64,000 nucleotides of DNA from an uncultured Acidobacteriota bacterium (lineage in GTDB: Bacteria > Acidobacteriota > Blastocatellia > Pyrinomonadales > Pyrinomonadaceae). Location: the NCBI GenBank assembly GCA_963790745.1, contig CAWBPY010000001.1, forward strand, positions 91,925-155,924. The letters run 5' to 3'. Position 1 is the first letter of the stretch; each line of letters opens with the position of its first letter. Under the pieces are notes generated by a model that was given only the letters and a program-made list of their open reading frames with translations, did no database searches and was not told the DNA's origin. A program made the position numbers and the translations under genes. This document shows, one piece after another, positions 37,561 to 59,420 of the stretch.

Positions 37561-37752
37561 AATGTGTTTGCATTTTGTGTTGCGAAACTCGAAGTCTCTG
37601 CAAGTGCATTCCGGCTTTTCGTCGCTCATGGCAACGGTGTACTTTTCTTCGCGTCCGGCCTGTGAGGGAACTAGCCAAAGGTTCGATTTACCTTTACGGA
37701 TCACCTTTGATTTAGCTGCGATTTCCAAGCCTTTAATCTCTCTCGGTTCCAT
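37540..37752 (-). pseudogene. divergent N-terminal SWIM-zinc-finger fragment of the island transposase family
   Basis: 70 aa; REIKGLEIAAKSKVIRKGKSNLWLVPSQAG...CTCRDFEFRNTKCKH aligns with the first ~65 residues of the 416-418 aa transposases, then stops. Confidence 0.6.
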
Positions 37753-37835
37753 CGGGATAACCTCGCTCAGTGGGGATAATTTCTTGAGCGCCTATATTAC
37801 TATAGAGTACATAGACCGTCCAGCAAAATGTGTAC

Positions 37836-37865
37836 TTGACAGTAATATATTTGAGTGCGTATATT
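37836..37865 (+). promoter_or_regulatory. promoter of the zinc-ribbon gene 37873-38025
   Basis: TTGACA (37836-37841), 18 nt, TATATT (37860-37865). Inverted boxes TATATTACT (37793-37801) and AGTAATATA (37841-37849). Confidence 0.5.
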
Positions 37866-37872
37866 TCCGCGC

Positions 37873-38025
37873 ATGGCTAAAGAAACGAGAAAAGTTACCG
37901 TCTATATTTGCGAGCGTTGCGAGCATGAATGGATACCCCGCGACGCAGAGAATGAACCGCGTGTCTGTCCGAAGTGCAAGAGTCCTTACTGGAACAAGCC
38001 GCGACGGAATGCGAAGGCGGCGTAG
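37873..38025 (+). CDS. small zinc-ribbon protein (50 aa), island ZnR family
   Basis: MAKETRKVTVYICERCEHEWIPRDAENEPRVCPKCKSPYWNKPRRNAKAA. Homologous to 48708-48875 and to the N-terminus of 40681-41028. Confidence 0.55.
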   Translation: MAKETRKVTVYICERCEHEWIPRDAENEPRVCPKCKSPYWNKPRRNAKAA

Positions 38026-38032
38026 CTAACAA

Positions 38033-38308
38033 GTGAAAGACGATCAGCTTGATTTGTTTCCCACCAGCGAACCAGAGATCAAGGGCCAGCTTGCGGCCTT
38101 TGCTATTGTGCTGCGCGGTCTAATCGAAACCCTTATAGCGAACGGTTCCTTAACCAAAGAACAGGCAAAGACACTCCTGCATCACTCTGATCTGAAAGCG
38201 GCTTTTGCGATCTGGGATGAACTGCAAGGCGAAATGCCTGATAGCGAACTGAAGCGAATGGAAGAACAGGCGACGCGGTTTCTCGAAAGTCTGAGGCGAG
38301 ATTTGTAA
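38033..38308 (+). CDS. hypothetical protein (91 aa)
   Basis: GTG-start ORF 7 nt after the ZnR gene. No recognisable domain and a weak RBS. Confidence 0.35.
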   Translation: MKDDQLDLFPTSEPEIKGQLAAFAIVLRGLIETLIANGSLTKEQAKTLLHHSDLKAAFAIWDELQGEMPDSELKRMEEQATRFLESLRRDL

Positions 38309-38335
38309 TGGTGTGCCACAAACTAACCATCCGGT

Positions 38336-38490
38336 TCGGTCAATATGCTTTTTGAGGCAAAAGCTGTTATTGAGGCAAAGCCCGGTCCAACGGTCCAACG
38401 GCTTTGCCTAATAAGTCGCGTTTGCCTAAAAATTCCTCCGTTTGCCCAAAAAATCATTTTGACCGCAAACGGCGAACCTTTAGGCAAGCG
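38336..38490. repeat. island hairpin-iteron module, copy 1
   Basis: TGAGGCAAA at 38353 and 38371. Hairpin AGGCAAAGCC-CGGTCCAACGGTCCAAC-GGCTTTGCCT (38373-38409). TTTGCCTAA at 38403 and 38421, TTTGCCCAA at 38441, TTAGGCAAG at 38480. Confidence 0.85.
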
Positions 38491-38497
38491 CCAGATA

Positions 38498-38836
38498 TTA
38501 GAACGTCTTAATGCCCAGCGCGTTTAGCATCTGTTCTTCCTCACGAGTTAGCTTGCCCTCAGTCAGTCGGATGAACAGGTTAAAGGATGCGTCGTGAAAT
38601 TCGGAATATCCGAATAGCACTTCCATCGCGAGATCAAGTGACTCCATTACTGCCGGAGGCTTGATTAGTTGACCTTCGAAGTAGTTCCGAAGCATCGCGA
38701 AATTAAATCCGAGCCTGAGCGCCGCGTAATGCTCTCCCTCGAACGGCTCAAAGGCTTGTTCCCATAGGTCGCGTTCTACGAGTGGGTTCGGGATCGGATC
38801 ATCTTCCGTGATGTCCGTGGTAACATTTATTTGCAT
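38498..38836 (-). CDS. island small protein family X (112 aa)
   Basis: ATG at 38836 after AGAAAGGAACTGACC. MQINVTTDITEDDPIPNPLVERDLWEQAFEPFEGEHYAALRLG...LTREEEQMLNALGIKTF. Paralogs at 57789, 61818 and 45117. Confidence 0.6.
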   Translation of the reverse strand: MQINVTTDITEDDPIPNPLVERDLWEQAFEPFEGEHYAALRLGFNFAMLRNYFEGQLIKPPAVMESLDLAMEVLFGYSEFHDASFNLFIRLTEGKLTREEEQMLNALGIKTF

Positions 38837-38933
38837 GGTCAGTTCCTTTCTCCTTAACGTGGTTAGGAATTGGCTGTGTAGGGCTGGTGAGTGTTTCGAG
38901 CACTTGCCAGCCCGCTTCATTTTGAGGCCAACC

Positions 38934-38962
38934 ACTATAGACACATTGTTTCATCTGTGCAA
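38934..38962 (-). promoter_or_regulatory. family X promoter (TTGCAC-N17-TATAGT)
   Basis: Minus strand: TTGCAC (38957-38962), 17 nt, TATAGT (38934-38939). Identical boxes precede all four family X genes. Confidence 0.65.
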
Positions 38963-39009
38963 GGTGTTTGTGGCCGTAGCGGGCTGATCGATCCGACAGA
39001 CTTACGTTG

Positions 39010-39294
39010 CTATGGCGGCGGTTGTTGTTCTTCTTCTTCCTCTGCTTCTCCTATATCCCTTCCGCCTCCAAAATAAAAACCAAGGGCTGAACCGATAAGC
39101 GTGGTAAGTGCGGGGAATACAGTTTGAATAAACGAATCAGGCTTCCTGTCGCACCATATCAAAACGAACGTACCAATGATGGTCATACCAAGTATGATGA
39201 GCAGCCCAATCATCACCTTTGTACGGGTTTTCTCCCGTTTCCGGTCAACATAATGCTTGATTGGCACACCGCTACTTGTCGTTGGCTGGCTCAT
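39010..39294 (-). CDS. small two-helix membrane protein with acidic tail
   Basis: 94 aa. The start overlaps the stop of the upstream gene (ATGA). TM helices VMIGLLIILGMTIIGTFVLIW and FPALTTLIGSALGFYF; EAEEEEEQQPPP tail. Confidence 0.5.
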   Translation of the reverse strand: MSQPTTSSGVPIKHYVDRKREKTRTKVMIGLLIILGMTIIGTFVLIWCDRKPDSFIQTVFPALTTLIGSALGFYFGGGRDIGEAEEEEEQQPPP

Positions 39295-40130
39295 GAAACT
39301 TCCTCGCTTGTATCTTCCGAGTATTCCTCAGGCGGCACAGAATCAAATAACGGCATAGGTTTATCTTTGGGCGGGTAAAACAGTCCGACTATGATCCAGA
39401 CGTTGGGATGCCCGTGCATTGTGCCAACAAAGAAATGGGTATCCCGCTCGATCATTTTTGTCTCATAGGTTTTCCGAAATTCAGCTTCCCAATCATTGCC
39501 ATATTCTTTAGACCACTTGCGCCATGATTGGCCCATCTCCCAGTCAGTGCAGATAATCTTGTGACCCGAACACTTACTTTCATCACAGGTAAACTCATAT
39601 TGAAAGTCAAAGGGGACTTTCTCTAGTTCCTGTTTTGGCCCAGCTTGAAACAGGTGGCCTTGCCGAAGGATGCTCTTTTGAGACTCCGTCCACTCTGCGG
39701 CAGCGGTTTTGATCACTAATCTGTTGATGGTTTTTGGCTTGAAAACTCCAAGTGTCGGAGAGCCTTTAGCGACTTGCTCTCTTTTCAGGCAACAAAGGCA
39801 GTGCGCTTTTAGTGGAAGGACAAACTTCTTTCTTGCTCGCCATCCATTTGCAGTAGACAAAATAGGCGAGACGATCTTGATCGTTGCACTATTTAATTTA
39901 TGGCTTTCGGGGCGAGGATCTTTCGAGGCTTTCGCCATACTGGCTTCGATCCATTGATACTTACTGAACCGTTGATCTTGCTCCAAGAATCGGTAGGGAA
40001 TTGGAAACAACCGAAGCCACTCGCCAGTCTCAGTGATCGCGGCAGTACATGACACCTCCACTCCCGATTTTGCGGGAACAGGATATGTCCGTACTACTAT
40101 GAGCGCCTTTTTCGTTTCCGAAGGCGGCAT
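39291..40130 (-). CDS. Cys-rich protein of unknown function (279 aa), DUF488 operon
   Basis: ALIVVRTYPVPAKSGVEVSCTAAITETGEWLRLFPIPYRF..., HCLCCLK, FTCDESKCSGHKIICTDWE. No domain recognised by eye. Confidence 0.55.
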   Translation of the reverse strand: MPPSETKKALIVVRTYPVPAKSGVEVSCTAAITETGEWLRLFPIPYRFLEQDQRFSKYQWIEASMAKASKDPRPESHKLNSATIKIVSPILSTANGWRARKKFVLPLKAHCLCCLKREQVAKGSPTLGVFKPKTINRLVIKTAAAEWTESQKSILRQGHLFQAGPKQELEKVPFDFQYEFTCDESKCSGHKIICTDWEMGQSWRKWSKEYGNDWEAEFRKTYETKMIERDTHFFVGTMHGHPNVWIIVGLFYPPKDKPMPLFDSVPPEEYSEDTSEEVS

Positions 40131-40144
40131 GAATCTCTCGTGGG

Positions 40145-40672
40145 TTAGAGATCGAAGCCCTTTAGGCCCATTCGCTCAAGGGCTAGGAAAAGTCGGTGTC
40201 TGTGACACTCTTGAGGATCAATTTCAACGCACATAAGCGCAACGGGATGCTCTACGGAATTGAGGAATCGGTGTAGATTGCGCCCGATGTATGAAGGAAC
40301 AATATTTTGATCGTACCACGTCCAAATAACGTCCCGAGTCCCTGCTTCAATCGCCTTTGCTCGAATATCTCTTGGCACGCCAAGCTCAGGAAAATGTACG
40401 TACAGCAATCCGCGATCTTCGACTGATCGTTTTAGATTGTTTTTGCTTACCTCGGGGCGATACATGCTTACCGGGAATTGCCGAATATCCACGAGAGTTC
40501 TCACACGGTTCGAAACCAACACTTCGAGAATCTCGTCCAGCTTTCTTCCGGTGTAACCAAGCGTAAAGAACTCCGCTACATCGAGACTCCTCGCCTCATT
40601 CCACAGAAGTTTATTTTCAGCCTGTTTCTTAGCTGAGGCGCTTGGCAATTTGAGTCGATTCGCTTGAGGCAC
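40145..40672 (-). CDS. DUF488 family protein
   Basis: 175 aa, GTG start. FTLGYTGRKLDEILEVLVSNRVRTLVDIRQFPVS and C-terminal ALMCVEIDPQECHRHRL match the DUF488 pattern. Confidence 0.75.
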   Translation of the reverse strand: MPQANRLKLPSASAKKQAENKLLWNEARSLDVAEFFTLGYTGRKLDEILEVLVSNRVRTLVDIRQFPVSMYRPEVSKNNLKRSVEDRGLLYVHFPELGVPRDIRAKAIEAGTRDVIWTWYDQNIVPSYIGRNLHRFLNSVEHPVALMCVEIDPQECHRHRLFLALERMGLKGFDL

Positions 40673-40680
40673 GCGGCATT

Positions 40681-41028
40681 TTAGCGCACTTGCCAGTGAA
40701 TTACACCATTTTTATCTTTCTTTCGGTCGAGACCTATGTCCTTTTCCATCCGGTGGACCCACTCGTTATTCGGAAACTTCTGCGGCAGTTTTGCGGCGGT
40801 CCGAATCTCCGTCCACGTCAGCGGCTTCCCGGCGTCCTTCAGAGTTTTCTTTATGGCCCCGCTGAAATCCTCATACGTCATCATCGACTTGGCCTTTCTC
40901 GGACTGTTCCAATAGGGGCTTTTACATTTCGGACACACCTTTGGCTCATTTTCCGTGTCACGAGGCATCCACTCGTGATCACACCGCTCGCAGCGGTAGC
41001 CCATTACAGTGATAGGTACTCTTGCCAT
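40681..41028 (-). CDS. zinc-ribbon plus winged-helix-like putative regulator (ZnR family, long form)
   Basis: 115 aa. N-terminus MARVPITVMGYRCERCDHEWMPRDTENEPKVCPKCKSPYWNSPRK; C-terminal 60 aa are helix-rich (LTWTEIRTAAKL...). Confidence 0.55.
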   Translation of the reverse strand: MARVPITVMGYRCERCDHEWMPRDTENEPKVCPKCKSPYWNSPRKAKSMMTYEDFSGAIKKTLKDAGKPLTWTEIRTAAKLPQKFPNNEWVHRMEKDIGLDRKKDKNGVIHWQVR

Positions 41029-41037
41029 ACTGGCTAG

Positions 41038-41066
41038 TATATACGCCTGAAATAAATTCCTGTCAA
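41038..41066 (-). promoter_or_regulatory. promoter of the ZnR-DUF488 operon
   Basis: Minus strand: TTGACA (41061-41066), 17 nt, TATATA (41038-41043). TATATTACT-type boxes lie nearby. Confidence 0.5.
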
Positions 41067-41139
41067 GTAGATTACTATTGACTATATACTTAACTAGTAA
41101 TATACTCTGTCAATCCTAAATCAAAGGCAAGAGGACACA

Positions 41140-41470
41140 ATGACAACCACTCCAGACCGTCAACTCTCAGAACGCGAAGTTAAAGCACTCCAGATCGCCG
41201 CAACTACCAAACTCACACGCAAGGGCAATGTGTGGATCGTCCCATCACAAGCGGGCCACGGTGAATACAAAGTGAATCCCGATCCGCAAGCGCCGAAATG
41301 CACATGCCCCGACTTCGAGTTTCGCAATGCTCGCTGCAAGCATGTGCTCGCGGTTGAGTACGTTCTAAGACGTGAGACTACCTCAGACGGTGCTACGGTT
41401 GTCACCGAGACGATAAAGGTCACACGCAAGACCTATAGCCAGAATTGGCCCGCGTACAACGCCGCTCAGA
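41140..41470 (+). pseudogene. truncated SWIM-DDE transposase (first ~110 codons only)
   Basis: MTTTPDRQLSEREVKALQIAATTKLTRKGNVWIVPSQAGHGEYKV...KTYSQNWPAYNAAQ. Similarity to the full copies ends at about 41470. Confidence 0.75.
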
Positions 41471-42590
41471 GCCCGCGTCCGCAAATAGTCTGTATTTCGG
41501 GGATAACCTTGAGATACTGAGAAACGAGATCAAGTCTGAAAGCGTTGACTTAATCTATCTCGATCCTCCGTTCAATTCCAAAGCTAATTACAATCTTCTT
41601 TTCAAGTCACCAAAGGGTCAAGACTCTCACGCTCAAATAACAGCCTTCGAGGATTCATGGCACTGGGGCCCGCAAGCTGAACTGGAGTTTAGCGAACTGA
41701 TCCATCAAGCGAACACTGACGTTTCAGAAATGATGCAGGCGCTACGCCGCTTCTTAGGTGAGAATGATGTCATGGCCTACCTCACGATGATGGCGAACCG
41801 TCTCTTAGCGCTTCATCGCGTTCTTAAACCTACCGGCTCACTCTATCTGCATTGCGATCCGACTGCATCGCATTATTTGAAACTCGTTCTCGATGGTGTC
41901 TTTGGAAAAGAAGGTTACTTAAACGAGATAATTTGGAAGCGACACAGTGCGCACAGCAGCGCCAACCGCTTCGGCCCCATTCATGACACAGTTTTCTTTT
42001 ATGGGAAGTCTCATACTGAACATCGATGGAATTCACAAAGGGTTGGCTATGAAGAGGAATATCTTGATAAGTATTACAAATACGACGATGGCGACGGTCG
42101 GCTCTACTGGAGGAATAGCGCCACCGCTGCTGGCATTCGACATGGAAGCTCGGGAAAACCGTGGCGGGGCTTTGACCCAACAAGTCGTGGTGTCCATTGG
42201 AAGTTCACCATTGAAAATCTCGAAGCACTCGACGCCAAAGGGGGAATCTATTGGCCACCGAACAACGGATGGCCCTATATCAAGCGTTACCGCGAAGAGT
42301 TGAAAGGGTTGGTTGTGTCTGACATCTGGGATGACATTGATAAGATAAACCCCTCGGGACATGAGCGCCTTGGCTACCCCACCCAAAAGCCATTGGCATT
42401 GTTAGACCGCATCATCAAAGCTAGTTCCAATGAAGGCGACGTTGTGCTCGATCCGTTTTGCGGTTGTGGAACAGCGGTGCACGCCGCAGAAAAACTAAAG
42501 CGCCGATGGATTGGAATTGATGTCACTCATCTTGCAATCGCGCTTGTCGAGAAGCCGTCGAATAGACTTTGTAGCAGGATGAAAAAATGA
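41445..42590 (+). CDS. beta-class N6-adenine DNA methyltransferase core; both termini are IS-derived (chimeric, probably truncated)
   Basis: LYFGDNLEILR, motif IV DLIYLDPPFNS, motif I DPFCGCGT, RRWIGIDV. The TTG start and first 8 codons lie in the left transposase stub; the last ~12 codons are antisense to the right stub. Confidence 0.7.
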   Translation: MARVQRRSEPASANSLYFGDNLEILRNEIKSESVDLIYLDPPFNSKANYNLLFKSPKGQDSHAQITAFEDSWHWGPQAELEFSELIHQANTDVSEMMQALRRFLGENDVMAYLTMMANRLLALHRVLKPTGSLYLHCDPTASHYLKLVLDGVFGKEGYLNEIIWKRHSAHSSANRFGPIHDTVFFYGKSHTEHRWNSQRVGYEEEYLDKYYKYDDGDGRLYWRNSATAAGIRHGSSGKPWRGFDPTSRGVHWKFTIENLEALDAKGGIYWPPNNGWPYIKRYREELKGLVVSDIWDDIDKINPSGHERLGYPTQKPLALLDRIIKASSNEGDVVLDPFCGCGTAVHAAEKLKRRWIGIDVTHLAIALVEKPSNRLCSRMKK

Positions 42591-43141
42591 TGTCCGACAA
42601 TGACAGGCGCGGTCTGCCTGTGCGCTGCTCAGGCTCAGGAAGGTTTCTGCACAATTCGTAGAGCAAGGCTTGCAGTTCTGACTTCTCTTTCGTTTGAGCC
42701 GCATTGTATGCGCCCCAATTCTGGCTGTAGGTCTTGCGTGTGACTTTGATCGTCTCAGTCACAACCGTTTGACCGTCTGCGGTAGTCTCGCGCTCTAAAA
42801 CGTACTCGACAGCGTAAATATGTTTGCAGCGTTGTTGCGTGTATTCGTGATCGGGGCATGTGCATCGCGGCGTTTCTGGATCGGGATTCACTTCGTACTC
42901 ACCGTGTCCCGCTTGTGATGGAACGGTCCACACGTTGCCCTTGCGAGTGAGTTTTGATTTCGCGGCGATCTGGAGTGCTTTGATTTCGCGTTCTGTGAGT
43001 TGACGGTCAGTGGTTGTCATTGTGTCCTCTTGTGTTGTTGAGGCGATTGGCTCACAATGACTTTTGCGGAGACAGATGCGAGCAATCGCGTTTGTTTTCA
43101 ATGGCCCTGTCGGTTGTTACAAGCAACTGGCAGGGCTTTTT
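42556..43141 (-). mobile_element. truncated SWIM-DDE IS copy (left end plus first ~155 codons)
   Basis: ORF 42523-43101; MTTTDRQLTEREIKALQ from 43020, and similarity stops at ...KVYST (about 42556). Terminal hairpin GCCCTGTCGGTTGTTACAAGCAACTGGCAGGGC at 43104-43136. Confidence 0.7.
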
Positions 43142-43192
43142 CGTTTCGGAGAGCATCATAGCAGAGAACCGCAGAATTGTACAGTTTTGCGG

Positions 43193-43221
43193 TTGACAGC
43201 AATCTGGCTAGGCGCTAGACT
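43193..43221 (+). promoter_or_regulatory. promoter and operator of the HTH-ImmA gene
   Basis: TTGACA (43193-43198), 17 nt, TAGACT (43216-43221). Inverted repeat AACCGCA...TGCGGTT overlaps the -35 box. Confidence 0.5.
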
Positions 43222-43257
43222 GTTTTTGCTTAATTTTTCCCATTTGGAGAGTGCGGC

Positions 43258-44394
43258 GTGGAAGACGATTTGAAGGAATCTACTCAGATATTCCCAGTCG
43301 TTAAACATCTCAAAGACGAATTAAAGGCCCGTGGATGGCTTCACAGGGACTTGGCATTCGTTGTCGGACGAAGCGTGGATCAGATTGACAATCTAATGGC
43401 GGGACGCACCGAGTTGTCACCGGAATTAGCGCAGGAACTTGGAATCGTTTTTGGACAAGGCGGGCAATATTGGCTTGCGCTCGACGCGGCTTATCGACTG
43501 TCACAGGCGCGGGTTGATCCGTTAATTGTCAGGCGTTCAAAGATATTTGGTTATCCAGTAAAGGAACTACAAAAGCGTAGATGGATCGCTGAGGCAGACA
43601 AGGCATCCGATTTGGAATACGAACTGAAGCGACTTCTTAAAACCGATGATCTTGACGAACCTCTTTCCCTCTACGGCGATGAAGACTTGCCCTTCGAAGC
43701 ATCATTCAAGCGTACAGTTAAATCCGTCCACTTAAACAAGCCGGAAAAGGCATGGCTCGCAAGAGCGATTGAATTGGCCCACTGCTACCCAACAGTCCAA
43801 TACAAAGAAGCAACGATTGAACGTCTTCAACAAGACCTTCGACGCTACGCTGCTAAGTCTCAAGCAATTCGTCGCGTGCCAGAGTTGCTGGCGCGCTATG
43901 GCATTAGGTTTGTGATAATTGAACCGTTGAAAAACGTAAGCATTGATGGTGCGTCCTTTTGGTTGGATCGGAATTCTCCGGTCATTGTGATGTCGCTTCG
44001 CTTTGACAATATCGGTTCTTTTTGGTTCGCCCTTTTGCATGAAGTCGAACACATAAAAAATAGGGATTCGCTTTCATTTGATGATCTTCAAAAAAAGCAG
44101 ACAGACGAAACCGAAAAGCTGGCAAATAAAAACGCGGCTGAACGGCTTGTACCTCAAGATGAGTTAGATCAATTCGTTAGAACTTACGGGCCACGTTATT
44201 CAGAGGCGCGAATTAACAACCTCGCCACTCGCTTACAAATTCATCCTGGCATTATCGTGGGCCAACTACAGCACCGAGGCGAAATTAGCTATGCCGCCTT
44301 TAAGTCAATGCTGACTAAGGTGCGACATTTGGCCGTTGATTTGGCGTTTACAGATGGCTGGGGTCGGCCTATCCCGATCCCCAGCATCAAGTAA
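43258..44394 (+). CDS. HigA-like HTH fused to an ImmA/IrrE metallopeptidase domain
   Basis: 378 aa, GTG after GGAGA. HigA-type HTH (RDLAFVVGRSVDQIDNLMAGRTELSPELAQELG...YWLALDAAYRL); HExxH in FALLHEVEHIKNRD. Confidence 0.7.
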   Translation: MEDDLKESTQIFPVVKHLKDELKARGWLHRDLAFVVGRSVDQIDNLMAGRTELSPELAQELGIVFGQGGQYWLALDAAYRLSQARVDPLIVRRSKIFGYPVKELQKRRWIAEADKASDLEYELKRLLKTDDLDEPLSLYGDEDLPFEASFKRTVKSVHLNKPEKAWLARAIELAHCYPTVQYKEATIERLQQDLRRYAAKSQAIRRVPELLARYGIRFVIIEPLKNVSIDGASFWLDRNSPVIVMSLRFDNIGSFWFALLHEVEHIKNRDSLSFDDLQKKQTDETEKLANKNAAERLVPQDELDQFVRTYGPRYSEARINNLATRLQIHPGIIVGQLQHRGEISYAAFKSMLTKVRHLAVDLAFTDGWGRPIPIPSIK

Positions 44395-44409
44395 GGAGAA
44401 TTACGACTT

Positions 44410-44931
44410 ATGCGCGGAGGATATTTAGCTTATCTACTTGGTCAGATTCTGGAGTGGGCAGAGAAAGAAGGAATTGAGAACATAGAAGCGGAGCCGTTTT
44501 TTGAATACGCAATTGCCCACAATATTCCCTTGCGACCCCCACAGACCTTAAAGCAGCAAACGATACGTGATGTTAGTCGGGCACTGCAAAAGGCTACTTA
44601 CATCGATCCGCAGGGGAACAAGGTACGGGCGCGACACGCGCTCAGGGTAGATCAATTAGAACTACCAAACATGCCGCCAAGGTTTGAGTACATCGATCCC
44701 AGAACAACTGAGCCTCCCACGATGGAAGTTTCGATGGATCAGAGTTACGAGAAAATCGTCAACCATGTTAGGCGTCATGCGATTGAACAACAGTCTTTCA
44801 ACCTAAACACTCCCTATGAGGGCAAAGTGAGAGACTATAACTATGATTTTAGCGCCGAGGCTGAAGACGCGAGAATGACAGGTAAGTACAACGACGATCT
44901 AGATGCAGAGGATTTGGACGACTTGGATTAA
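44410..44931 (+). CDS. hypothetical protein (173 aa) downstream of HTH-ImmA
   Basis: ATG after AAGGAGA; acidic tail DDLDAEDLDDLD. No recognisable domain. Confidence 0.5.
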   Translation: MRGGYLAYLLGQILEWAEKEGIENIEAEPFFEYAIAHNIPLRPPQTLKQQTIRDVSRALQKATYIDPQGNKVRARHALRVDQLELPNMPPRFEYIDPRTTEPPTMEVSMDQSYEKIVNHVRRHAIEQQSFNLNTPYEGKVRDYNYDFSAEAEDARMTGKYNDDLDAEDLDDLD

Positions 44932-44960
44932 AGCCAATTGCCCCCTCTTAGATAAACCAA

Positions 44961-44990
44961 AAGGCCGACACTCAGATCGGCCTTTGTCGT
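44961..44990 (+). terminator. probable terminator
   Basis: AAGGCCGA (44961-44968) / TCGGCCTT (44977-44984), then a T-rich run. Confidence 0.5.
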
Positions 44991-45000
44991 TATTAAGAAC

Positions 45001-45029
45001 TTGCACGGATGAAACAATGTATCTATAGT
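45001..45029 (+). promoter_or_regulatory. family X promoter
   Basis: TTGCAC (45001-45006), 17 nt, TATAGT (45024-45029). Confidence 0.65.
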
Positions 45030-45116
45030 GGCGCAACCCGCTAGGGCGGGACTGGCAAGTGTTATCAGCACTCGCCAGCCCCTTCACAGTCAAATCCTGT
45101 ATGAGAGGAATCGACC

Positions 45117-45431
45117 ATGCACGATAATCCTAACACTAACAATGAGAATCACCTTGACGCTGAAGACTGGCAAATAGCCTTTGGGCCATATGCGGGACAC
45201 CCCGATGCGGCTCTAAGTCTAGGGCGTCTTTTAATGATCCTCGGTCAGAGTCTCAAAGCTAAGACTCCAGACGTACCGGGAACACTTGCCGCGATAGATG
45301 AAGCGGCAGAGGTTCTTTATTCGCACAGCGACTTCCACAAAGGCGCATACGATCTGTACCGCGTTGCAATTGAAGGCCGCGCTACACGAGCGCAGGAAGC
45401 GTTGATCGAGACGTTGGGAGTACGACTCTAA
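45117..45431 (+). CDS. divergent member of small protein family X (104 aa)
   Basis: Shares DxW..AF.P(F/Y).G...AAL.LG, EVL(F/Y)..S(E/D)FH, EG(K/R).TR and LG(I/V) with the other three copies. Confidence 0.55.
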   Translation: MHDNPNTNNENHLDAEDWQIAFGPYAGHPDAALSLGRLLMILGQSLKAKTPDVPGTLAAIDEAAEVLYSHSDFHKGAYDLYRVAIEGRATRAQEALIETLGVRL

Positions 45432-45670
45432 TGGGCTACGCAAGACCACGCCCTGAGAGGCTCGCTGAGAAGCTACTCCAGATCCGTGTGACGCTTGGTC
45501 TGTCACAAAGTCAGATCGCCAAGCAAATCGGAATCACGGAGTACACAGTGATCTCGAAATTTGAGCTTAATAAAAACGAGCCTCCGCTTTCGGTTGTGCT
45601 CGCTTACTCGCGGCTCGCAGGAGTGCGCGTCGAGGATCTAATCGATGATGACATGAACTTAGAATTCTAA
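45431..45670 (+). CDS. XRE-family HTH protein (79 aa)
   Basis: The ATG shares one base with the upstream TAA (TAATG). LLQIRVTLGLSQSQIAKQIGITEYTVISKFE. Confidence 0.65.
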   Translation: MGYARPRPERLAEKLLQIRVTLGLSQSQIAKQIGITEYTVISKFELNKNEPPLSVVLAYSRLAGVRVEDLIDDDMNLEF

Positions 45671-45715
45671 TTCGACTTTGAATCGGCGTTTTGGCTGAGC
45701 AGTCATTCTGACTTT

Positions 45716-45850
45716 TGAGGCAAGCCGCTGAGTTTGAGGCAAATGATACTTCTAGGGCAAAGCCGTTGGACCGTTGGACCGGGCTTTGCCTAATTAATGG
45801 TCATTAAAATGGAAACTATCGTTTCTGCCTAAAAAATCATTCTGACTGAT
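45716..45850. repeat. island hairpin-iteron module, copy 2
   Basis: TGAGGCAAG at 45716, TGAGGCAAA at 45735, TAGGGCAAA at 45753. Hairpin 45755-45790 with loop GTTGGACCGTTGGACCG. TTTGCCTAA at 45785, TCTGCCTAA at 45824. The right arm is identical to copy 3. Confidence 0.85.
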
Positions 45851-46991
45851 TAGGCTTAGGCGGGGTCTCACTATCTTTTTGTTGATTCGAAGAGGTCTCA
45901 CTGCTTAAGACGGAACTGTCTTGGCCCCCCTCAAGGTATCCTCTAATATCTGTATCGAAATCACGGGCTATGCGTTCCATTTCTTCTTTCGTCAGCCCGG
46001 TTAGCACCTCTTCACCAAAACTCAGACGCGGTTGCTCAACACGCGGGACGTGTCGGGTCACTCTTTCGACTGTGTAGCTTTTGTTGAGGTACGTGCGGAT
46101 ATTCGGATCTAAGACTTGCTCGATGCGGAGTTCAACGTCTAAGCCATCCCCTTTAGCAAATCTCTCGCCGTGATCAATGCGTTCTAAAAATCCATCGTCG
46201 TTCATCGCGACATTGATCCGGTTTCCATTGAACACTACTTCCCACTTTAGCCCTCGTTCAAAACTTGGCTTTACGATGTGCAGATATACAGGCACCGCTA
46301 TCGATCTTGTCTCAGGCAACGGCACATCGCCCTTGAGTGCCATAGGAGAAAAATCCTCACGCTTGACATCGAATAGGGCCTGCTCTTTCTCGTCTAAGAT
46401 TTCAAAGCCCGTTACCTGCGGATCACTGTCCAGTGTTTTAAAGGTTCTGGACAGCGCCTCACTGACTTTCGGGTTCCCGAAGTACACTTCATACGTGCGT
46501 TGATCCACAACGAGGCGTGCATTGTCGCCTACTATCAAAACCCCGCCGTTGGCCGTCTGTTGAACTTCCTTTGGTGGCGTACCCTTCAGTAGCTTTCGGA
46601 TCTTGAAAATGCCTGCCACTGTAGTGATGATCACACCTATTGCCGCGCCTGCTGTCTTGAGGACATCGGGCGTTAGCAATTGCCCTATCTCTGTAGGTAG
46701 TAGCGCAAGGTGAACAACAAAACTGCCTTCACCGTGCGCCTTAACTTTGATTTCTACCGGCGCGCCAATCTTCAACCCGTCGTTCACTTCTTTGATGATT
46801 GACGTGATATTGACAAGCGAGTGCCCTAGCGTGGCGGCGTCTATAGAGTTAGGTTCGCCGTCGAATTTTATCTTGAATTCTTGTTCGTTTTTAGAGGCCA
46901 TAAACTCAGCTACTCTATAGCAGTTAGATGCGATAAGGACAACAACTAAGAGTAGGCCGAATCTGAATTGAAGGAAACGCGATGTAGCCAT
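45837..46991 (-). CDS. hypothetical protein (384 aa) with a central hydrophobic segment
   Basis: Long ORF with an alternative start at 46901 (MASKNEQEF). AGAAIGVIITTVAGIF segment. No recognisable domain. Confidence 0.5.
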   Translation of the reverse strand: MATSRFLQFRFGLLLVVVLIASNCYRVAEFMASKNEQEFKIKFDGEPNSIDAATLGHSLVNITSIIKEVNDGLKIGAPVEIKVKAHGEGSFVVHLALLPTEIGQLLTPDVLKTAGAAIGVIITTVAGIFKIRKLLKGTPPKEVQQTANGGVLIVGDNARLVVDQRTYEVYFGNPKVSEALSRTFKTLDSDPQVTGFEILDEKEQALFDVKREDFSPMALKGDVPLPETRSIAVPVYLHIVKPSFERGLKWEVVFNGNRINVAMNDDGFLERIDHGERFAKGDGLDVELRIEQVLDPNIRTYLNKSYTVERVTRHVPRVEQPRLSFGEEVLTGLTKEEMERIARDFDTDIRGYLEGGQDSSVLSSETSSNQQKDSETPPKPNQSE

Positions 46992-47208
46992 AAGACACTC
47001 CTATCCGTCGAATAGGAGTCCGATCCTGAAGTCGGTTTCTGTCTTTTGGCTCTGGCCTATGGTATGCGGCTTAATGTCGGTCTAGCGACTGCGCTGTCCT
47101 GTGGCTCTGGCACGGTGAGACTTTCACACTGATGACACTTGCCGGACTCAAAAAACTAAATTGTGACTGAATTCTACATCGATGTTTGCGCTAAGGGCAA
47201 ATGCAATT

Positions 47209-48616
47209 AAAGGGCTAACGCGTGCCCTATCATTGCGGTAGCGGTTCCCCGAAGTTAGTTTCAATTCCCAATTCATGAACGGATTGCAGCACAACACAGA
47301 GGTTGTGACAAAGCACCTTACACAACGCTTCGTTTACCTGTGCTGTGAGTGTCCGACTCCGCAAGCGTTGACCGAACTTGCTCTTGATCATGTGGAATGT
47401 AGTCTCGACATTGGATCGTTTGTGGTAGTGCTGTAGAAACTCCGCCCGATGCAGCGCGTAAAAGTGGTACATCCGAGTCCACAAGTCCGACTTCGCGCCG
47501 TAACTGCCGCGTGAGTCCGGCACTGAATTACTTTTGAATGGGATGTACGGGATCGCCCCGCGTTGCAACGTGGCGAGCATATTTGACGCTCCGAGATAGC
47601 CCTTGTCTGCCGATACCTCTTTCATCTTGAATCCGGCATCTGCTGTGCGATCCACTAAGCCTTTGTAGAACGGATAATCATGTGCATAACCGTCGCTGAC
47701 TTCTACGCTCGTGACGATGTTCGTTTTGACTCCGACCATCAAATGCAGTTTGAAGCCACTGGCGACGATCTTCCTTTGTGCCGTATTTGACATCTAGCCA
47801 GCGCATAAACTGTCCGGTGCTGAAACCCGAACTATCTACCGCAAAGTCCGATTCAATAGATTTGAGAGGCGCGGCGCTCAGTGAAATTAGTTCGTACAAG
47901 TAAGGCGTCAACGCTTCCGATTCAAGGTAGTTAAAGACGCTGTTGTAATGTGGCAAGTGCGAGAGATAGCCACGCTGTTTCGCTTCGCGGAGATCCGTTG
48001 CAAACCGTCGCCCTGAGACGGTTGAATAAATCTTATACGTTGACGAAAAGATCATGTCGCTCAGAGGTAGTTGTGGTCTGCCTCTGCCTTTGCGCTGCTC
48101 AGGCTCAGGAATGTTTTTGCAGAGTTCGTAGAGATACGCTTGCAGCTCTGATTTCTCGTGCGTCTGCGCGGCATTGTACGCGGGCCAATTCTGGCTATAG
48201 GTCTTGCGTGTGACCTTGATCGTCTCGGTGACAACCGTAGCACCGTCTGAGGTAGTCTCACGTCTCAAAACGTACTCAACCGCGAGCACATGCTTGCAGC
48301 GAGCATTTCTAAACTCGAAGTCGGGGCATGTGCATTTCGGCGCTTCGGGATCGGGATTGACTTTGTATTCACCGTGGCCCGCTTGCGATGGAACGATCCA
48401 TACATCGCCCTTGCGAGTGAGTTTAGAGGTAGCGGCGATCTGGAGTGCTTTAACTTCGCGTTCTGAGAGTTGACGATCTGTGGTTGTCATTGTGTCCTCT
48501 TGCCTTTTGGTTAGGCGATGGCTCACAATGAACGTGCTGGAGATTCAGCGTGAGCAATCGCGTTTGAGTTTTCAAAAGGGCCTTAGTGGTTAGCGCCGCT
48601 AGGGCCTTTGTTTTCT
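47209..48616 (-). mobile_element. SWIM-DDE IS copy C (frameshifted)
   Basis: From AAAGGGC (47209) to the terminal hairpin GGGCCTTAGTGGTTAGCGCCGCTAGGGCC and CCTTTG (48610). Borders are approximate. Confidence 0.65.
47230..48490 (-). pseudogene. SWIM-DDE transposase with a 1-nt insertion frameshift
   Basis: ORFs 47678-48526 and 47230-47793 together match copy A. An extra A in TTTGAAGCCACTGG (about 47753), versus TTTGAGCCACTGG in copy A, breaks the frame at ...RRQWL. Confidence 0.8.
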
Positions 48617-48671
48617 AACGTGCTGATATATTACTCTGAAATAACATATCACGTCAATGCAAATATACTAC

Positions 48672-48700
48672 TTGCGGATAATATATTCACGGTCTATACT
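48672..48700 (+). promoter_or_regulatory. promoter of the zinc-ribbon gene 48708-48875
   Basis: TTGCGG (48672-48677), 17 nt, TATACT (48695-48700). A TATATTACT box lies upstream. Confidence 0.45.
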
Positions 48701-48707
48701 GCCAGCC

Positions 48708-48875
48708 ATGCCGAAAGTGAAAATTACCGTTTGGGGCTTTAAGTGCGGACGCTGCGATCATGAGTGGGTTCCTCGTGATATCAAAGACGAACCGCGCTAT
48801 TGCCCGAAGTGCAAAAGCCCGTACTGGAATAAGCCTCGACAATACAAGCTAGCCAAAAGGGGAAGTAGCAGTTAG
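48708..48875 (+). CDS. small zinc-ribbon protein (55 aa), ZnR family
   Basis: MPKVKITVWGFKCGRCDHEWVPRDIKDEPRYCPKCKSPYWNKPRQYKLAKRGSSS. Confidence 0.55.
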   Translation: MPKVKITVWGFKCGRCDHEWVPRDIKDEPRYCPKCKSPYWNKPRQYKLAKRGSSS

Positions 48876-49112
48876 ACTACCGCTGCAACGCATCGCTTGC
48901 CACGGCCCACGCTTGATTCCCGTCAAAGTTTCCGAGCGTGGGCCTTCCCATGTTTAAGCCCTTCACGTCGGCAAGCCAGTGAACGTAAAAAGCTACTGCC
49001 CCTCCTCATCGTAGTGCCCTCCCAAAATCAAAAAGCGATGAGTTACTATTCTCATCGCTCCCCATTTTGAACTACCGATCAGTACTGCGATATGTCAGTT
49101 AGCGAAAATGTT

Positions 49113-49233
49113 TGTCCCATGACAACGGTATAACCCCTTGTGACCTATGACGAGCTGCGTAGATTACTGACCTATGACACTTTCTCCGAGTTTTTGTCAT
49201 AGGTCACTGTCAGCAATGCTTTGACCTATGACA
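49113..49233. repeat. array of five 12-mers (TGACCTATGACA) phased every 27 bp
   Basis: 49113 (TGTCCCATGACA, degenerate), 49141, 49168, 49195 (inverted, TGTCATAGGTCA) and 49222. The last copy overlaps the stop codon of the split gene. Confidence 0.8.
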
Positions 49234-49657
49234 GGTTTTTGCGATTCTTGCCGCCCCTTTCCTCGACGGTCGTATTCTTTTTGGACTGAGCGGCCAACCT
49301 GCGAGCCTTCCATCCTTCGGAAAACTGGTACCAAGTGATCGGCTCATTGGTTAGCCAGAACCTCTTAGATTGACCACGACGCAATTTCTCATCCTCGCTT
49401 GCCGTAAGTTCCCAGTTTCGGGCTAGCTCTAAGTCACGCTTCAAGCTCCTGTCACTAATCGTTGCGCTCTTGCCCGTTACCCCTTGCTTCTCCAACTGTT
49501 CTAGGTAGATGCGAATAGCTAAACTCTGCAAAGTCGTGTTCGGTTTCCAGTGTCGCTTGGCTAGATCCAAAAGATGAGTATCCGGTGGAACATCGCGCAA
49601 TCTGATAGGGTGACGTTCCAAGTGTGGTCTATTGTTCTTTAGTGGTTGAACCAAGTG
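49226..49657 (-). pseudogene. 3' half of a 283-codon gene split by IS21
   Basis: Reading continues in frame from 52449 across one copy of the CCAAGTG duplication: ...FHLSHL|VQPLKNNRPHLERHPIRL... Confidence 0.75.
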
Positions 49658-49768
49658 CCTCGGTGAACACCCAAAAGCGGCCATTCATGAACACCGCAAA
49701 ACCGGCCATAGAGAAGTAGTCGCGCAGGGACGTTGACGTCGCCCGCGAGGCAAGTAGCCTCCGGCGCC

Positions 49769-51412
49769 ATGAGCAACGTATTGAGCGACGATAAACGACA
49801 ACAAATAATCGCCTTAGGTCGGCTCGGCTGGTCCTTACGACGCATTGAGCAAGCCACCGGTGTGCGCCGGGAGACGGCCAGCGCCTATCTAAAGGCCGCC
49901 GGCATCAGTGTGCGACGTCCCGGTAAGCGGGGACGCGGGGCAAAACCGGCCATAGAGGTGTTCACCGACTCTGAGCTGGGAAAAGCGGTCAATCCTCCAG
50001 ATAATCAGTCTGAAGTTTCAAAACCGGCCATAGAGGTGTTCACCGACTCTGGTGGCGCTAAAGCGGCCACTACGCCCACCGCCAACACCAACAAAGCGCT
50101 GACCCTGAGCAGTTGCGAGCCCTATCGCGAGTTCATTCAGCAGTCATTAGCACGTGGCCGCAATGCCATGGCCATTTGGCAAGACCTGGTGACTGATTAT
50201 GGCTTTGCGCACAGCTATCAAAGCGTTAGACGATTCGTTAACAAACTCTACCCGCCCGAGTTGCAGCCCTCAGCGCGGGCCGTGATCGTTACCGCACCCG
50301 GTGAGGAAGCCCAGGTGGATTACGGTACTGGCCCCTGGGTGCGCGATCCAGAAAGCGGCAAGTATCGGCGTACCCGACTGTTTGTGATGACCCTGGGTTA
50401 CAGTCGCAAGTGCGTACGCCTGTTGGTGTTTCGTTCCAGCGCTCGGGTCTGGGCCGAACTCCATGAAAAAGCGTTTCGCCGCCTTGGTGGCAGTGTGCGC
50501 GTGGTGGTGCTCGACAATCTGAAAGAAGGCGTGCTGAAGCCGGATATTTACGATCCCACACTCAACCCACTCTATCGTGATGTGTTGGCCCATTATGGCG
50601 TAGTCGCCTTGCCGTGTCGCGTCAATGATCCGGATCGCAAAGGGAAAGTTGAAGCTGGAGTGGGCCACGCCAAGAAGACGCCACTCAAAGGGCAACGCTT
50701 CGAGAGTCTGGAAACGGCTCAGGCTTATCTCGATCACTGGGAAACACGTTGGGCTGACACGCGTATTCACGGTACTACCAAACGACAAGTGACGGTGATG
50801 TTTGCTGAAGAGCGACCGCACTTGTTGCCACTGCCACTCGAACCCTTCCGCTTTTATGAATATGGGCAACGCGTAGTGAACCTTGACGGCTGTGTGGAAG
50901 TAGCAGCTGCTTACTACAGTGCCCCGCCGGGCTGGATCGGCCGCCGCGTGCCGGTGCAATGGGACGGACTATATGTGCGCTTGCTGCATCCACAAACGGG
51001 CCAACTATTACGCGAACACCTGCGCCAGAAACGCGGTTGGCATCGCATTCAGGAAGAGGATCGCTCACCACGGACCCCACCTTCCACCTTGCAGTTACTC
51101 ACTCGCGCCAGCCACGCCGGCAGTAGCATCGGCAAGTTGTGTCAGGCGATTCATCAACGACAAGGCCAGGTTGGCGTGCGGCGCATCCTCGGGGTGCTGG
51201 CGTTAGCAAAGCGGTTTGGCCCAGCAGTGGTTGAAGAAGCTTGTGCGGCCGCACTCGAACTGGGCGTGCATGAGTATCACTTTGTGCGTCGTTATCTCGA
51301 GCGGCAGCCCGCGTTACCACTGACGCTACAGCAAGTCGATCCCCTGATTCGCGAACTGCAGCAGTATCGCGATGTCATTCAGCTAAGACTAAAGGAGTCG
51401 GAACCCACATGA
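49769..51412 (+). CDS. istA: IS21-family transposase IstA
   Basis: ORF 49733-51412; likely start MSNVLSDDKRQQIIALGRLGWSLRRIEQATGV (HTH), then a DDE core (VDYG..., VVLDNLK..., typical IstA length). Confidence 0.88.
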   Translation: MSNVLSDDKRQQIIALGRLGWSLRRIEQATGVRRETASAYLKAAGISVRRPGKRGRGAKPAIEVFTDSELGKAVNPPDNQSEVSKPAIEVFTDSGGAKAATTPTANTNKALTLSSCEPYREFIQQSLARGRNAMAIWQDLVTDYGFAHSYQSVRRFVNKLYPPELQPSARAVIVTAPGEEAQVDYGTGPWVRDPESGKYRRTRLFVMTLGYSRKCVRLLVFRSSARVWAELHEKAFRRLGGSVRVVVLDNLKEGVLKPDIYDPTLNPLYRDVLAHYGVVALPCRVNDPDRKGKVEAGVGHAKKTPLKGQRFESLETAQAYLDHWETRWADTRIHGTTKRQVTVMFAEERPHLLPLPLEPFRFYEYGQRVVNLDGCVEVAAAYYSAPPGWIGRRVPVQWDGLYVRLLHPQTGQLLREHLRQKRGWHRIQEEDRSPRTPPSTLQLLTRASHAGSSIGKLCQAIHQRQGQVGVRRILGVLALAKRFGPAVVEEACAAALELGVHEYHFVRRYLERQPALPLTLQQVDPLIRELQQYRDVIQLRLKESEPT

Positions 51413-52152
51413 ATCTGATCGAGTTGAACCAGGCTTTACGACAACTGCGGCTTGGTGGCATGGCCGCCGTGCTTGAAACTCGTTTGCATCAGGCCCAGGC
51501 TGAAGCCATGGCGCCTATTGATCTTCTCTCCTGTCTGGTGACGGATGAACTTACCCGGCGTGGTGATCGCTTACTGGAACGGCGGCGCAAACAGGCCGGC
51601 TTTCGTGAACCACTTAAGACACTCGACAACTTCGACTTCAACTTCAACAAAAAGATGAATCGCAGTCTGATCTTCGAACTCGCTACCGCCAACTTTATCG
51701 GACGCCGTGAAGATGCTCTGTTTCTAGGACCCGCTGGTTCAGGCAAGAGTCATATTGCGCAAGCCATCGGCCAGGCAGCCATTCAGCAAGGCTATCGCGT
51801 GCTCTATCGAGAGACGTATATGCTGTTGGATGAACTGGCTGAAGCAACCATTGACGGCACGCGCAAGGAGTTCATTGAATCAGTGGTCGCCTGGCCCCTT
51901 CTGATCATCGACGATCTCGGCATGCGTAAGTTGCCACTGACAGCGGCTGAGGATCTGTTGGAGATCATCATGCGTCGTTACGAGCGCGCCAGCACCCTGG
52001 TCACCTCCAATCGCCCAGTGGAGGATTGGGGCAAACTGTTGGGCGATGCGGCCGCAGTCGGTGCGATGCTCGATCGCCTGCTGCATCACGGGCATGTGCT
52101 CAAGTTTGGTCCACGCAGTTGGCGTACGAAGACAGAGCTCGCGCCGGCGTAG
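51409..52152 (+). CDS. istB: IS21-family helper ATPase IstB
   Basis: 247 aa; Walker A GPAGSGKSH, Walker B LLIIDDLG. Confidence 0.9.
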   Translation: MNLIELNQALRQLRLGGMAAVLETRLHQAQAEAMAPIDLLSCLVTDELTRRGDRLLERRRKQAGFREPLKTLDNFDFNFNKKMNRSLIFELATANFIGRREDALFLGPAGSGKSHIAQAIGQAAIQQGYRVLYRETYMLLDELAEATIDGTRKEFIESVVAWPLLIIDDLGMRKLPLTAAEDLLEIIMRRYERASTLVTSNRPVEDWGKLLGDAAAVGAMLDRLLHHGHVLKFGPRSWRTKTELAPA

Positions 52153-52868: not shown

Positions 52869-52884
52869 CAGTCATTTTGATTTT

Positions 52885-56548: not shown

Positions 56549-56576
56549 GTGTTCTGCCCCGAAATAAAATTAGTTG

Positions 56577-59412: not shown

Positions 59413-59420
59413 TGACTTCA

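Follow-up and report, generated by a model that had tools for sequence, protein, structure and literature searches.

The question raised by this locus is what five copies of a repeated module are doing in a stretch of 64,000 nucleotides (the window) from an uncultured bacterium of the Acidobacteriota (contig CAWBPY010000001.1, positions 91,925 to 155,924 of the forward strand). A preliminary description had noted, at 38336-38490, 45716-45850, 52885-53013, 58136-58276 and 62224-62273, quasi-palindromic units in which phased copies of a 9-mer, TKAGGCARR, surround a conserved hairpin, and had placed them at borders between unrelated gene blocks. All five modules were found again at these coordinates, and the contents of the blocks bear out that each module is such a border. 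The observation is thus confirmed, and we propose that the modules are, very probably, the junctions of neighbouring cargo-carrying transposons that are related to IS903 and home into the chromosomal dif site. The module is a by-product of transposon stacking and not a device in itself, and stacked transposon ends are a simple reading that replaces a puzzling unit. The island that carries the modules is about 25 kb long and consists of blocks with anti-phage genes, which are named 0 and A to D from left to right (Table 1).

The 9-mer is enriched as had been claimed. There are 24 matches to TKAGGCARR in the window compared with 3.88 ± 2.24 expected, none of 100 shuffles reached this number, and 22 of the matches lie in the island between 38353 and 62261. 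Its reported absence from the core sequence is almost right, there being a single core copy at 27761. The spacing of 18-20 nt that had been given for the 9-mers applies to the arms of modules 1, 2 and 4 but not to modules 3 and 5, where it is 29-39 nt, nor to a 39-nt gap inside module 2 (45785 to 45824), and the phasing at two helical turns is valid for some end types only.

In modules 1 to 4 the dyad GGCAAAGCC...GGCTTTGCC that had been described as a conserved hairpin is exact, but each of these modules consists of two abutting, independent transposon ends. The stem of the hairpin is a pair of terminal inverted-repeat tips, GGCAAAGCC and GGCTTTGCC, and the loop, CGGTCCAAC, is a 9-bp target-site duplication, because the same tips are found in other genomes together with a 9-mer that is specific to the locus. 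The elements run from GGCTTTGCC to GGCAAAGCC, and blocks C and D each lie between direct copies of CGGTCCAAC, which is the 9-nt loop of modules 3 and 4. The loop of module 1 is 17 nt long, CGGTCCAACGGTCCAAC, and that of module 2 is its exact reverse complement. The comparison loci were taken from 73 genomes. At least 25 independent elements in other genomes, 1.8-13 kb in length, have the same tips and are flanked by perfect 9-bp direct repeats of differing sequence. End-to-end junctions of the form GGCAAAGCC-N9-GGCTTTGCC occur in about 20 loci with a 9-mer particular to each, and these loop sequences, among them GTCGCTTCG, CACGCTGAC and CGAGGCGTC, differ in every other genome. An 8-bp duplication with a longer tip was also considered and rejected because all nine positions match at both flanks even if position 9 is not G. 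Repeat analysis showed that the half-modules pair with the far end of their own block and not across the hairpin (I16, I17, I21, I22, D15, D19). Since the two halves of a module are not always of the same end type, the term quasi-palindromic fits the tips alone.

Every block carries a transposase gene or fragments of one, with a SWIM-containing N-terminal part and a DDE_Tnp_1 domain, and the remaining DNA of the blocks is unrelated cargo. The transposase has about 418 amino acids (aa). Its DDE_Tnp_1 core matches PF01609 with E = 2.2e-21 and is preceded by an additional N-terminal part in which a SWIM zinc finger is found. The nearest annotated relative of the transposase is the transposase of the insertion sequence (IS) IS903B, a member of the IS903 group of the IS5 family, to which it is 25% identical at aa 112-423 (E 1e-7 to 4e-11 in tblastn), which covers almost the whole of the IS903B protein. 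The tips are also nearly identical in the pattern GGCTTTG..(A/C)ATAAATC, the IS903B tips, whose ends were read from a plasmid (L194), being GGCTTTGTTGAATAAATC and those of the window GGCTTTGCCTMATAAATC. The element ends read GGCTTTGCCT(A/C)ATAAATC, and they have the inverted repeat GGCTTTG...AATAAATC that characterizes the IS903 group. IS903 makes 9-bp target duplications, as do the elements described here. They differ from IS903 in the additional N-terminal region of about 110 aa that holds the SWIM zinc finger, in ends that are 50-90 bp long and have 2-4 repeated sites where IS903 has one inverted repeat of 18 bp, in their 1-11 kb of passenger genes, and in fixed insertion into dif. A sequence search of the PDB with the transposase gave no match, and an AlphaFold model built with 28 close homologues had a predicted local distance difference test (pLDDT) score of 45.7, which is too poor to use.

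The 9-mers belong to the ends of these elements. Each end has the tip copy of the motif TTTGCCTMA-AAA and, over a stretch of about 50-90 bp, 1-3 more copies in either orientation, and an inner box, AAAAnCAnnnTGACYGA, closes several end types. One end, next to a gene called X, has three direct copies 18-20 nt apart, whereas other ends have two copies that are about 21, 32 or 42 nt apart. The end repeats are found at both ends in every subfamily, and the sequences of repeat and tip change together, the repeat being TGCCCATAAA in Eremiobacterota copies and TGACCACAAAT in one Chloroflexota copy. They are kept even in L044, a 1.8-kb element with little beyond the transposase. The most likely explanation, by analogy with Tn7, Mu and the IS1202 family, which have multiple transposase-binding sites in a similar pattern, is that the end repeats are putative binding sites on which the transposase assembles the transposition complex. 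If so, the preliminary description was right in preferring an array of protein-binding repeats to a terminator, and transposase arm sites, which were among the options that it listed, would be the matching one.

The same description had put forward the family X proteins as candidates for binding the 9-mer. The X gene lies just inside one end and reads outward, and it is present only in a subset of related elements. The homologues of X are all unnamed, Pfam and NCBIfam searches with it gave nothing, and its model is a five-helix bundle (pLDDT 78.9) whose best fold match in the PDB has E = 1.6, which amounts to no structural match. X as a general binder of the 9-mer was rejected because many dif-adjacent elements do not have it; it also has no recognizable DNA-binding fold, and it is not needed in cis.

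What lies beyond the last element identifies the target. Module 5 has a left half and the 9-mer only and then runs straight into unrelated DNA, ATAATATGTATTATCAGACGC, and the same 21-mer is found, once each, beyond the outermost duplication in 20 other loci. A single copy of GATAATAnAnATTAT is present in the window and in each of the 20 loci, and an element tip always comes after it at a distance of 9 nt, or of 10 nt in one case. The site to which GATAATAnAnATTAT belongs is 28 bp long, has an 11-6-11 form with an inner ATAA-N6-TTAT dyad, and is a close match to the dif sites predicted in three Acidobacteria, ACGTCTGATAATGAATATTCTGCATTTC, ATGTCCGATAACAGATATTATGTTAACT and ACTTCCGATAACGAATATTATGTCAACT (Kono et al. 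2011). Based on this match and on its single occurrence, we regard the 28-bp site as the putative chromosomal dif; it and its counterparts in other genomes are called dif below for brevity. The 9-mer had been said not to be dif-like, which is true of the 9-mer itself but not of its surroundings, because the loop is the outer part of the XerD arm and dif follows directly after module 5. Similarly, module 5 had been called truncated, and it does have only its left half; it looks truncated because dif, and not another element, comes next. If the arms are laid out in the order C-spacer-D as in the dif of Acinetobacter and E. coli, the insertion point would be within the XerD arm, 4 nt from the central region (TTAT|GTnnnnnnn), and in the lineage of the window this target is fixed, always 4 nt into the arm.

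Metagenomes were then scanned with the conserved part of dif, which gave 120 further loci and, overall, 127 distinct sites. The distance from TTAT to an element tip was 9 nt in 51 of the 127, 17 nt in six, 25 nt and 33 nt in one each, and 8 or 10 nt in five, while 56 sites had no tip within 100 nt of TTAT. About half of the sites are therefore occupied, and among the 71 occupied sites 51 have exactly 9 nt and 59 belong to the series 9 + 8k. Some of the empty sites (L146, L160, L137) have the canonical XerD arm, TTATGTAAACT, and no element for kilobases, which shows that the site exists independently of the transposons. In five sets of loci from closely related populations (L091/L135, L093/L109/L130/L189, L108/L176, L118/L157 and L120/L152) the flanks on the XerC side are at least 90% identical and different elements are present at the identical position. 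This is direct comparative evidence of repeated, independent insertion at dif.

Insertion duplicates 9 nt and so regenerates the arm on the core side, which leaves dif rebuilt unchanged and lets the next element land in the same place. Each newcomer would thus enter at the same 9 bp, on the dif side of the element before it. After several rounds there would be a tandem array whose junctions all have the form end-CGGTCCAAC-end; the element nearest dif would be the youngest, and the older ones would be more decayed the farther they lie from it. Such a gradient of decay is seen in the window, where D and C are intact, B is frameshifted and has been hit by an IS21-family element, A is rearranged and only a stump is left of block 0. 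In L004, L025, L063 and L070, too, there is a tandem array anchored at dif, and in L066, L017 and L022, which are likewise anchored there, another element tip or fragments lie past the proximal element. No intact transposase was seen farther from dif than the second element. The transposase could recognize dif by reading its DNA or by contact with bound XerD/XerC.

The 17-nt loops of modules 1 and 2 show a 9+8 pattern that recurs at other dif sites. They can be written as T(1-8) + [T9 or T1] + T(2-9) = 17 nt, where T is the duplication, and this rule holds where the first and last bases differ (L121) and where the unit is inverted (L070). It is likely that a 17-nt loop is a scar, left when an element that had inserted between dif and the resident copy was later excised; excision would join the two copies of the duplication and remove 1 nt, in agreement with a 5' overhang of 1 nt on both donor flanks. 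Tandem copies of 8 nt of the arm adjoin dif in many genomes. There are element-free dif sites with 2-4 tandem 8-mers (L087, L125, L188) and arrays of up to nine or more copies (L126, L123, L181). In the last three loci and in L081 and L085 an 8-nt unit that comes from the XerD arm is repeated from 6 to at least 9 times, with drift in the distal copies, and it looks as if events at dif had been recorded cumulatively in these long arrays. The outer XerD arm (positions 4-8 of the duplication) varies greatly among occupied or scarred sites, and naive dif sites, mostly with the centre TATATA, keep the canonical GTAAACT; repeated transposition may erode the XerD arm. The reversed loop of module 2 would be explained by an inversion between two oppositely oriented transposase fragments, which are seen as inverted repeats at 41146-41470 and 48163-48487 that are 93% complementary (I7). 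When the inversion is undone in the sequence, blocks A and B each get one three-repeat end and one end of the TTAATGG type, like block C, a full transposase gene is reconstituted, and the spacer of module 2 reverts to CGGTCCAACGGTCCAAC.

These results raise the question whether dif is really what attracts the elements. An alternative is that the arrays form by attraction to the end of a resident copy, with re-use of its flanking 9 bp, as IS30 does at its own inverted repeats, and that dif was hit by a chance first landing. The abutted-end junction is indeed common, as the roughly 20 loci above show, and there are arrays with a shared duplication and no visible dif in L032 (AGCGGATTC, two elements) and L040 (CGCGCGTGA, three elements). 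Yet many single elements are found at dif, every one of 21 sites has the tip at a fixed offset from TTAT, more than two thirds of the occupied metagenome sites have the exact 9-nt spacing, and scars are present at dif sites that are free of elements. There are also solitary insertions away from dif (L007, L042, L044, L052, L071, L073), which means that a resident end is not required for insertion. We therefore consider this explanation rather unlikely as the cause of the arrays, although attraction to a resident end and targeting of dif are not mutually exclusive.

The position of the array at dif would also be expected if the blocks were Xer-exploiting integrative elements (IMEX), like CTX-phi or TLC, with attP-like modules and the 9-mers as accessory arm sites. 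IMEX stack in tandem at dif, and tandem accretion of foreign blocks is common to CTX-phi, TLC-phi, the gonococcal genetic island and the dif modules of Acinetobacter. Those blocks, however, are joined by XerCD recombination and bounded by dif-like sites, whereas the blocks of the window have transposon ends and a 9-bp duplication, and a DDE transposase is encoded or retained in every one. Their junctions have only 9 nt in common and do not contain the dif core, ATAA-N6-TTAT being present once, at the outer edge of the array, and for this reason they are not IMEX. Moreover, the same elements are found elsewhere with perfect 9-bp duplications of arbitrary sequence, which is a signature of transposition and not of site-specific recombination. 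An origin as IMEX is thus very improbable. We give even less weight to the possibility that the module is a stand-alone unit, such as a repetitive extragenic palindrome (REP), a miniature inverted-repeat transposable element (MITE), an iteron, a centromere or a regulatory palindrome, and lies at block borders incidentally. It is true that the dyad could be extruded as a hairpin and that short end-only derivatives exist (36 bp in L103, about 100 bp in L040 and about 340 bp in L022), but half-modules are paired by sequence type with the far end of their own block (I16, I17, I21, I22, D19), the loop is variable host DNA, and module 5 is a half-module exactly at the end of the array. The iteron and centromere readings of the preliminary description find no support, the blocks having no rep or par genes; domain searches found no Rep, ParA or ParB domains in the block open reading frames (ORFs), and no Rfam family was matched at the gathering threshold between 34 and 64 kb. 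The case that it had named as refuting, a REP or MITE scattered regardless of genes, does not apply either, since the motif in the window is confined to the island and the halves pair with the far ends of their own blocks.

Several observations weigh against homing of IS903-related transposons into dif as we describe it. The identity of dif is predicted from the sequence match and the single occurrence. The difference in GC skew between the flanks is small and not significant (XerC-side mean +0.014, 29 of 53 positive) and gives no evidence of a skew switch at the site, in a phylum with weak skew and with one flank being foreign DNA. In occupied sites the outer XerD arm is far from the canonical GTAAACT; successive insertions and excisions may have caused this, or the outer positions may be of little importance to Xer recombination. 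Frameshifts in some of the dif-proximal copies (L063, L066, L070) make the age gradient a tendency with exceptions. Distant subfamilies (L032, L040) also have tandem arrays that share one duplication and lie away from a recognizable dif, and attraction to a resident end may therefore contribute. The 8-mer arrays could have grown partly by replication slippage, and we infer, rather than observe, that the transposase binds the 9-mers. Lastly, the transposase scores 123.9 bits against the NCBIfam IS5 equivalog model NF033579, which is below the cut-off of 140 bits, and a length of 1.8-13 kb, multi-repeat ends, the SWIM extension and cargo do not agree with the description of a simple IS, namely one ORF in about 1 kb and short, single inverted repeats. 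Since the catalytic domain, the tips and the duplication agree with the IS903 group while the equivalog score and the description as a 1-kb IS do not, the elements are best filed as a divergent, SWIM-bearing, cargo-carrying offshoot of this group.

Other transposons that hunt dif have been described, so far only in the ISAjo2 group of the IS1202 family (Harmer, Pong & Hall 2023, PMC10132070; Siguier et al., preprint 10.1101/2022.12.17.520857). Like the elements of the window, the ISAjo2-type hunters are DDE elements that insert at a fixed distance from chromosomal dif and dif-like sites, have no dedicated target-selector protein, and have an extra internal transposase-binding site near each end. 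On the other hand, the IS1202 family has a TnsB-like transposase and TGT/ACA tips (DDE_Tnp_1 and GGC...GCC here), inserts 5 bp outside the XerC arm and not inside the XerD arm, and makes a duplication of 5 bp (3-5 bp in the family description) instead of 9 bp. Its members insert in a fixed orientation, are 1.5 kb long without cargo, have not been reported to stack in tandem or to leave scars, and are found in Acinetobacter and a few other hosts, not in Acidobacteriota. The elements here thus behave like dif hunters without belonging to the IS1202 family. In the searchable literature, the coverage of which is limited, we met with no IS5/IS903-type or SWIM-type transposon for which dif is the reported target, and only the IS1202 family surfaced. 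Tn7 at attTn7 is similar in having several transposase-binding repeats per end, in using one safe chromosomal site at which the host function stays intact, and in carrying cargo and forming islands. It makes a 5-bp duplication, however, and its target immunity prevents stacking, whereas the elements here stack, and domain searches found no TnsA, TnsB, TnsC or TnsD homologues among the block ORFs. In the absence of Tns proteins and of target immunity, the elements are not Tn7-like. The res hunters Tn5053 and Tn402 are also DDE transposons with repeated end sites that home to the recombination site of a site-specific recombinase, but their transposase family is TniA/B/Q and their target is the res site of a plasmid or transposon, not chromosomal dif.

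In light of these comparisons we lean, if only slightly, towards a wider proposal. It is that a large and undescribed IS903-related group homes into the XerD arm, rebuilds the site by its own duplication and delivers defence and toxin-antitoxin cargo, so that the terminus of many soil Acidobacteriota is a self-renewing defence island in which 8-nt scars record insertion and excision, and that targeting could make use of XerD or of FtsK at the closing septum. If contact with XerD or FtsK is involved, it would tie transposition to chromosome segregation. The group would be a second, unrelated lineage of DDE transposons that hunts dif, on the XerD side and inside the arm, with kilobases of anti-phage cargo and with stacking. 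It would offer a mechanism by which a defence island grows at one chromosomal address without damage to an essential site. Should the transposase be sufficient to select dif, this would point to a natural system in which one protein achieves site-specific insertion. The signature of a tip, 9 nt and TTAT can be used to locate dif and terminus islands in metagenome-assembled Acidobacteriota. To our knowledge little is known of the excision chemistry of IS5-family enzymes, and the regular 9+8 scars put a constraint on it. These points are relevant to specialists in mobile DNA and in chromosome biology.

Close relatives of the transposase number thousands in Acidobacteriota metagenomes, and the family forms 1136 clusters at 50% identity (E <= 1e-30) that extend to Chloroflexota, Eremiobacterota, Planctomycetota and several archaeal groups. 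Targeting of dif is demonstrated for the acidobacterial clade only; distant members sit elsewhere, and no dif-like motif was recognized beside the distant non-acidobacterial copies in L031, L033, L040 and L032. The left flanks of the Eremiobacterota loci L031 and L033 share GACTTTACA(A/G)(A/T)TGTCAAG at 7 nt from different duplications, which may be another preferred target or may be orthologous host DNA. Archaeal metagenome-assembled genomes, of DPANN and other groups (L043, L044, L045, L049, L051, L053, L065), have transposases that are 46-49% identical, and L044 is a minimal element of 1.8 kb with GGCTTTGCC tips and a 9-bp duplication. Archaeal copies of this type show that the family crosses domains. 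Contigs classed as viral also carry family members (the IMG/VR contig L202, and L195-L199). In L202 a complete element of 3.7 kb is present at 4513-8240 with the duplication AAGGAAATA at a non-dif site, and phages or prophages could be vehicles for the spread. Derivatives that have only the ends were seen as a 36-bp tip-to-tip remnant after dif in L103, flanked by the duplication GTTGGTTCA, as a lone 9-nt tip between two 8-mers in L075, and as MITE-like units of about 100 bp (L040, 3300-3399) and about 340 bp (L022, 12709-13049).

Table 1. Positions of the blocks, spacers, end repeats and dif-like site of the island (numbering of the window)
Feature	Position	Strand	Remarks
Block 0 remnant	37565..38382		Left-truncated within transposase N-terminal fragment; oldest recognizable element; tblastn, repeat D11
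Block 0 transposase fragment	37561-37752	-	aa 35-95
Block 0 right end	38336-38382		Two TGAGGCAAA repeats
Module 1 end repeats	38353..38488		Forward 38353, 38371 = block 0 right end; reverse 38403, 38421, 38441 (TTTGCCCAA) and inverted copy 38480 = block A left end
Spacer, module 1 loop	38383..38399	+	17 nt, CGGTCCAACGGTCCAAC; two target-duplication copies minus 1 nt
Block A	38400..45764		7365 bp, rearranged transposon; three-repeat type at both ends
Block A transposase N-terminal fragments	41116-41472, 42550-43008	+, -	
Block A cargo			PDC-M19A/B, type II methyltransferase, PD-Lambda-2_B-like M78 peptidase; X-family gene at each end
Module 2 end repeats	45716..45832		45716, 45735, 45753 = block A right end; 45785, 45824 = block B left end
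Spacer, module 2 loop	45765..45781	-	17 nt, GTTGGACCGTTGGACCG; exact reverse complement of module 1 spacer
Block B	45782..52935		7154 bp, transposon; cargo PDC-S42; inverted-repeat pair I16
Block B transposase	47230-48526	-	Frameshifted
IS21-family element in block B	49733-52152		istA (rve and Mu-transposase C-terminal domains) and istB; unrelated to the stacked transposons
Module 3 end repeats	52885..52995		52885, 52924 = block B right end; 52948, 52987 = block C left end
Target-duplication copy, module 3 loop	52936..52944	+	CGGTCCAAC
Block C	52945..58220		5276 bp, intact transposon between direct CGGTCCAAC; has DUF6414 gene
Block C transposase	54056-55312	-	Intact; SWIM and DDE_Tnp_1
Block C RmrA/RmrT	55433-57230		Complete pair
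Block C X gene	57789-58166		
Module 4 end repeats	58136..58259		58136 (inverted), 58171, 58191, 58209 = block C right end; 58233, 58251 = block D left end
Target-duplication copy, module 4 loop	58221..58229	+	CGGTCCAAC
Block D	58230..62264		4035 bp, intact transposon adjoining dif, between direct CGGTCCAAC
Block D transposase ORF	59737-61068	+	Intact
Block D X gene	61818-62156	+	
Block D ends			Both with two TTTGCCTCA repeats and inner box AAAAnCAnnTTGACCGA
Module 5	62207..62264	+	Block D right end alone; repeats 62224, 62253; repeat analysis D19
Target-duplication copy nearest dif	62265..62273	+	CGGTCCAAC; 62267-62273 = outer 7 nt of XerD arm
dif-like site	62267..62294	-	GCGTCTGATAA TACATA TTATGTTGGAC = XerC arm, 6-bp centre, XerD arm; once in window

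The cargo ORFs of the window (39291-40672, 41445-42590, 43258-44394, 45837-46991, 53014-53838 and 55433-57230) are mostly known or candidate anti-phage or toxin-antitoxin genes by PADLOC and Pfam. The PADLOC matches are PDC-M19A/B (with DUF488), a type II N6/N4 methyltransferase, a PD-Lambda-2_B-like M78 peptidase, PDC-S42 and RmrT/RmrA, and DUF6414 is also among the cargo of this kind. The scan for tRNA genes found none, so the island is not linked to a tRNA, and a megablast search of E. coli genomes with the right end of the island gave no match.

The island had been taken to begin at 38336, but it reaches further to the left, as shown by the truncated element at 37565-38382. Older, degenerate ends were seen beyond it, GGCATAGCC followed by GGAACCGAC and GGCAAAGCC followed by CTATTCAAC (35184-35196, 36919-36927), and a duplicated pair of zinc-ribbon genes lies to the left of module 1 (ORFs 35835-36118 and 36575-36862), with a PLD/DrmC-like gene just beyond the pair (ORF 33365-34774). 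Based on these degenerate ends and genes, the accreted island probably starts at or before 35 kb.

Two further elements were noticed upstream of genes within the blocks. Immediately in front of the transposase genes (43075-43139 and 55368-55432) there is a conserved hairpin, CCCTGTCGGTTGTTACAAGCAACTGGCAGGG, which is a possible element of translational or transcriptional control. Upstream of every X-family gene there is a conserved box similar to a sigma-70 promoter (TTGCAC-N17-TATAGT) followed by a GGGCTGG...CCAGCCC hairpin, at 57664-57746, 61690-61773 and 45000-45082 and, as the reverse complement, at 38872-38963, which is possibly a regulated leader.

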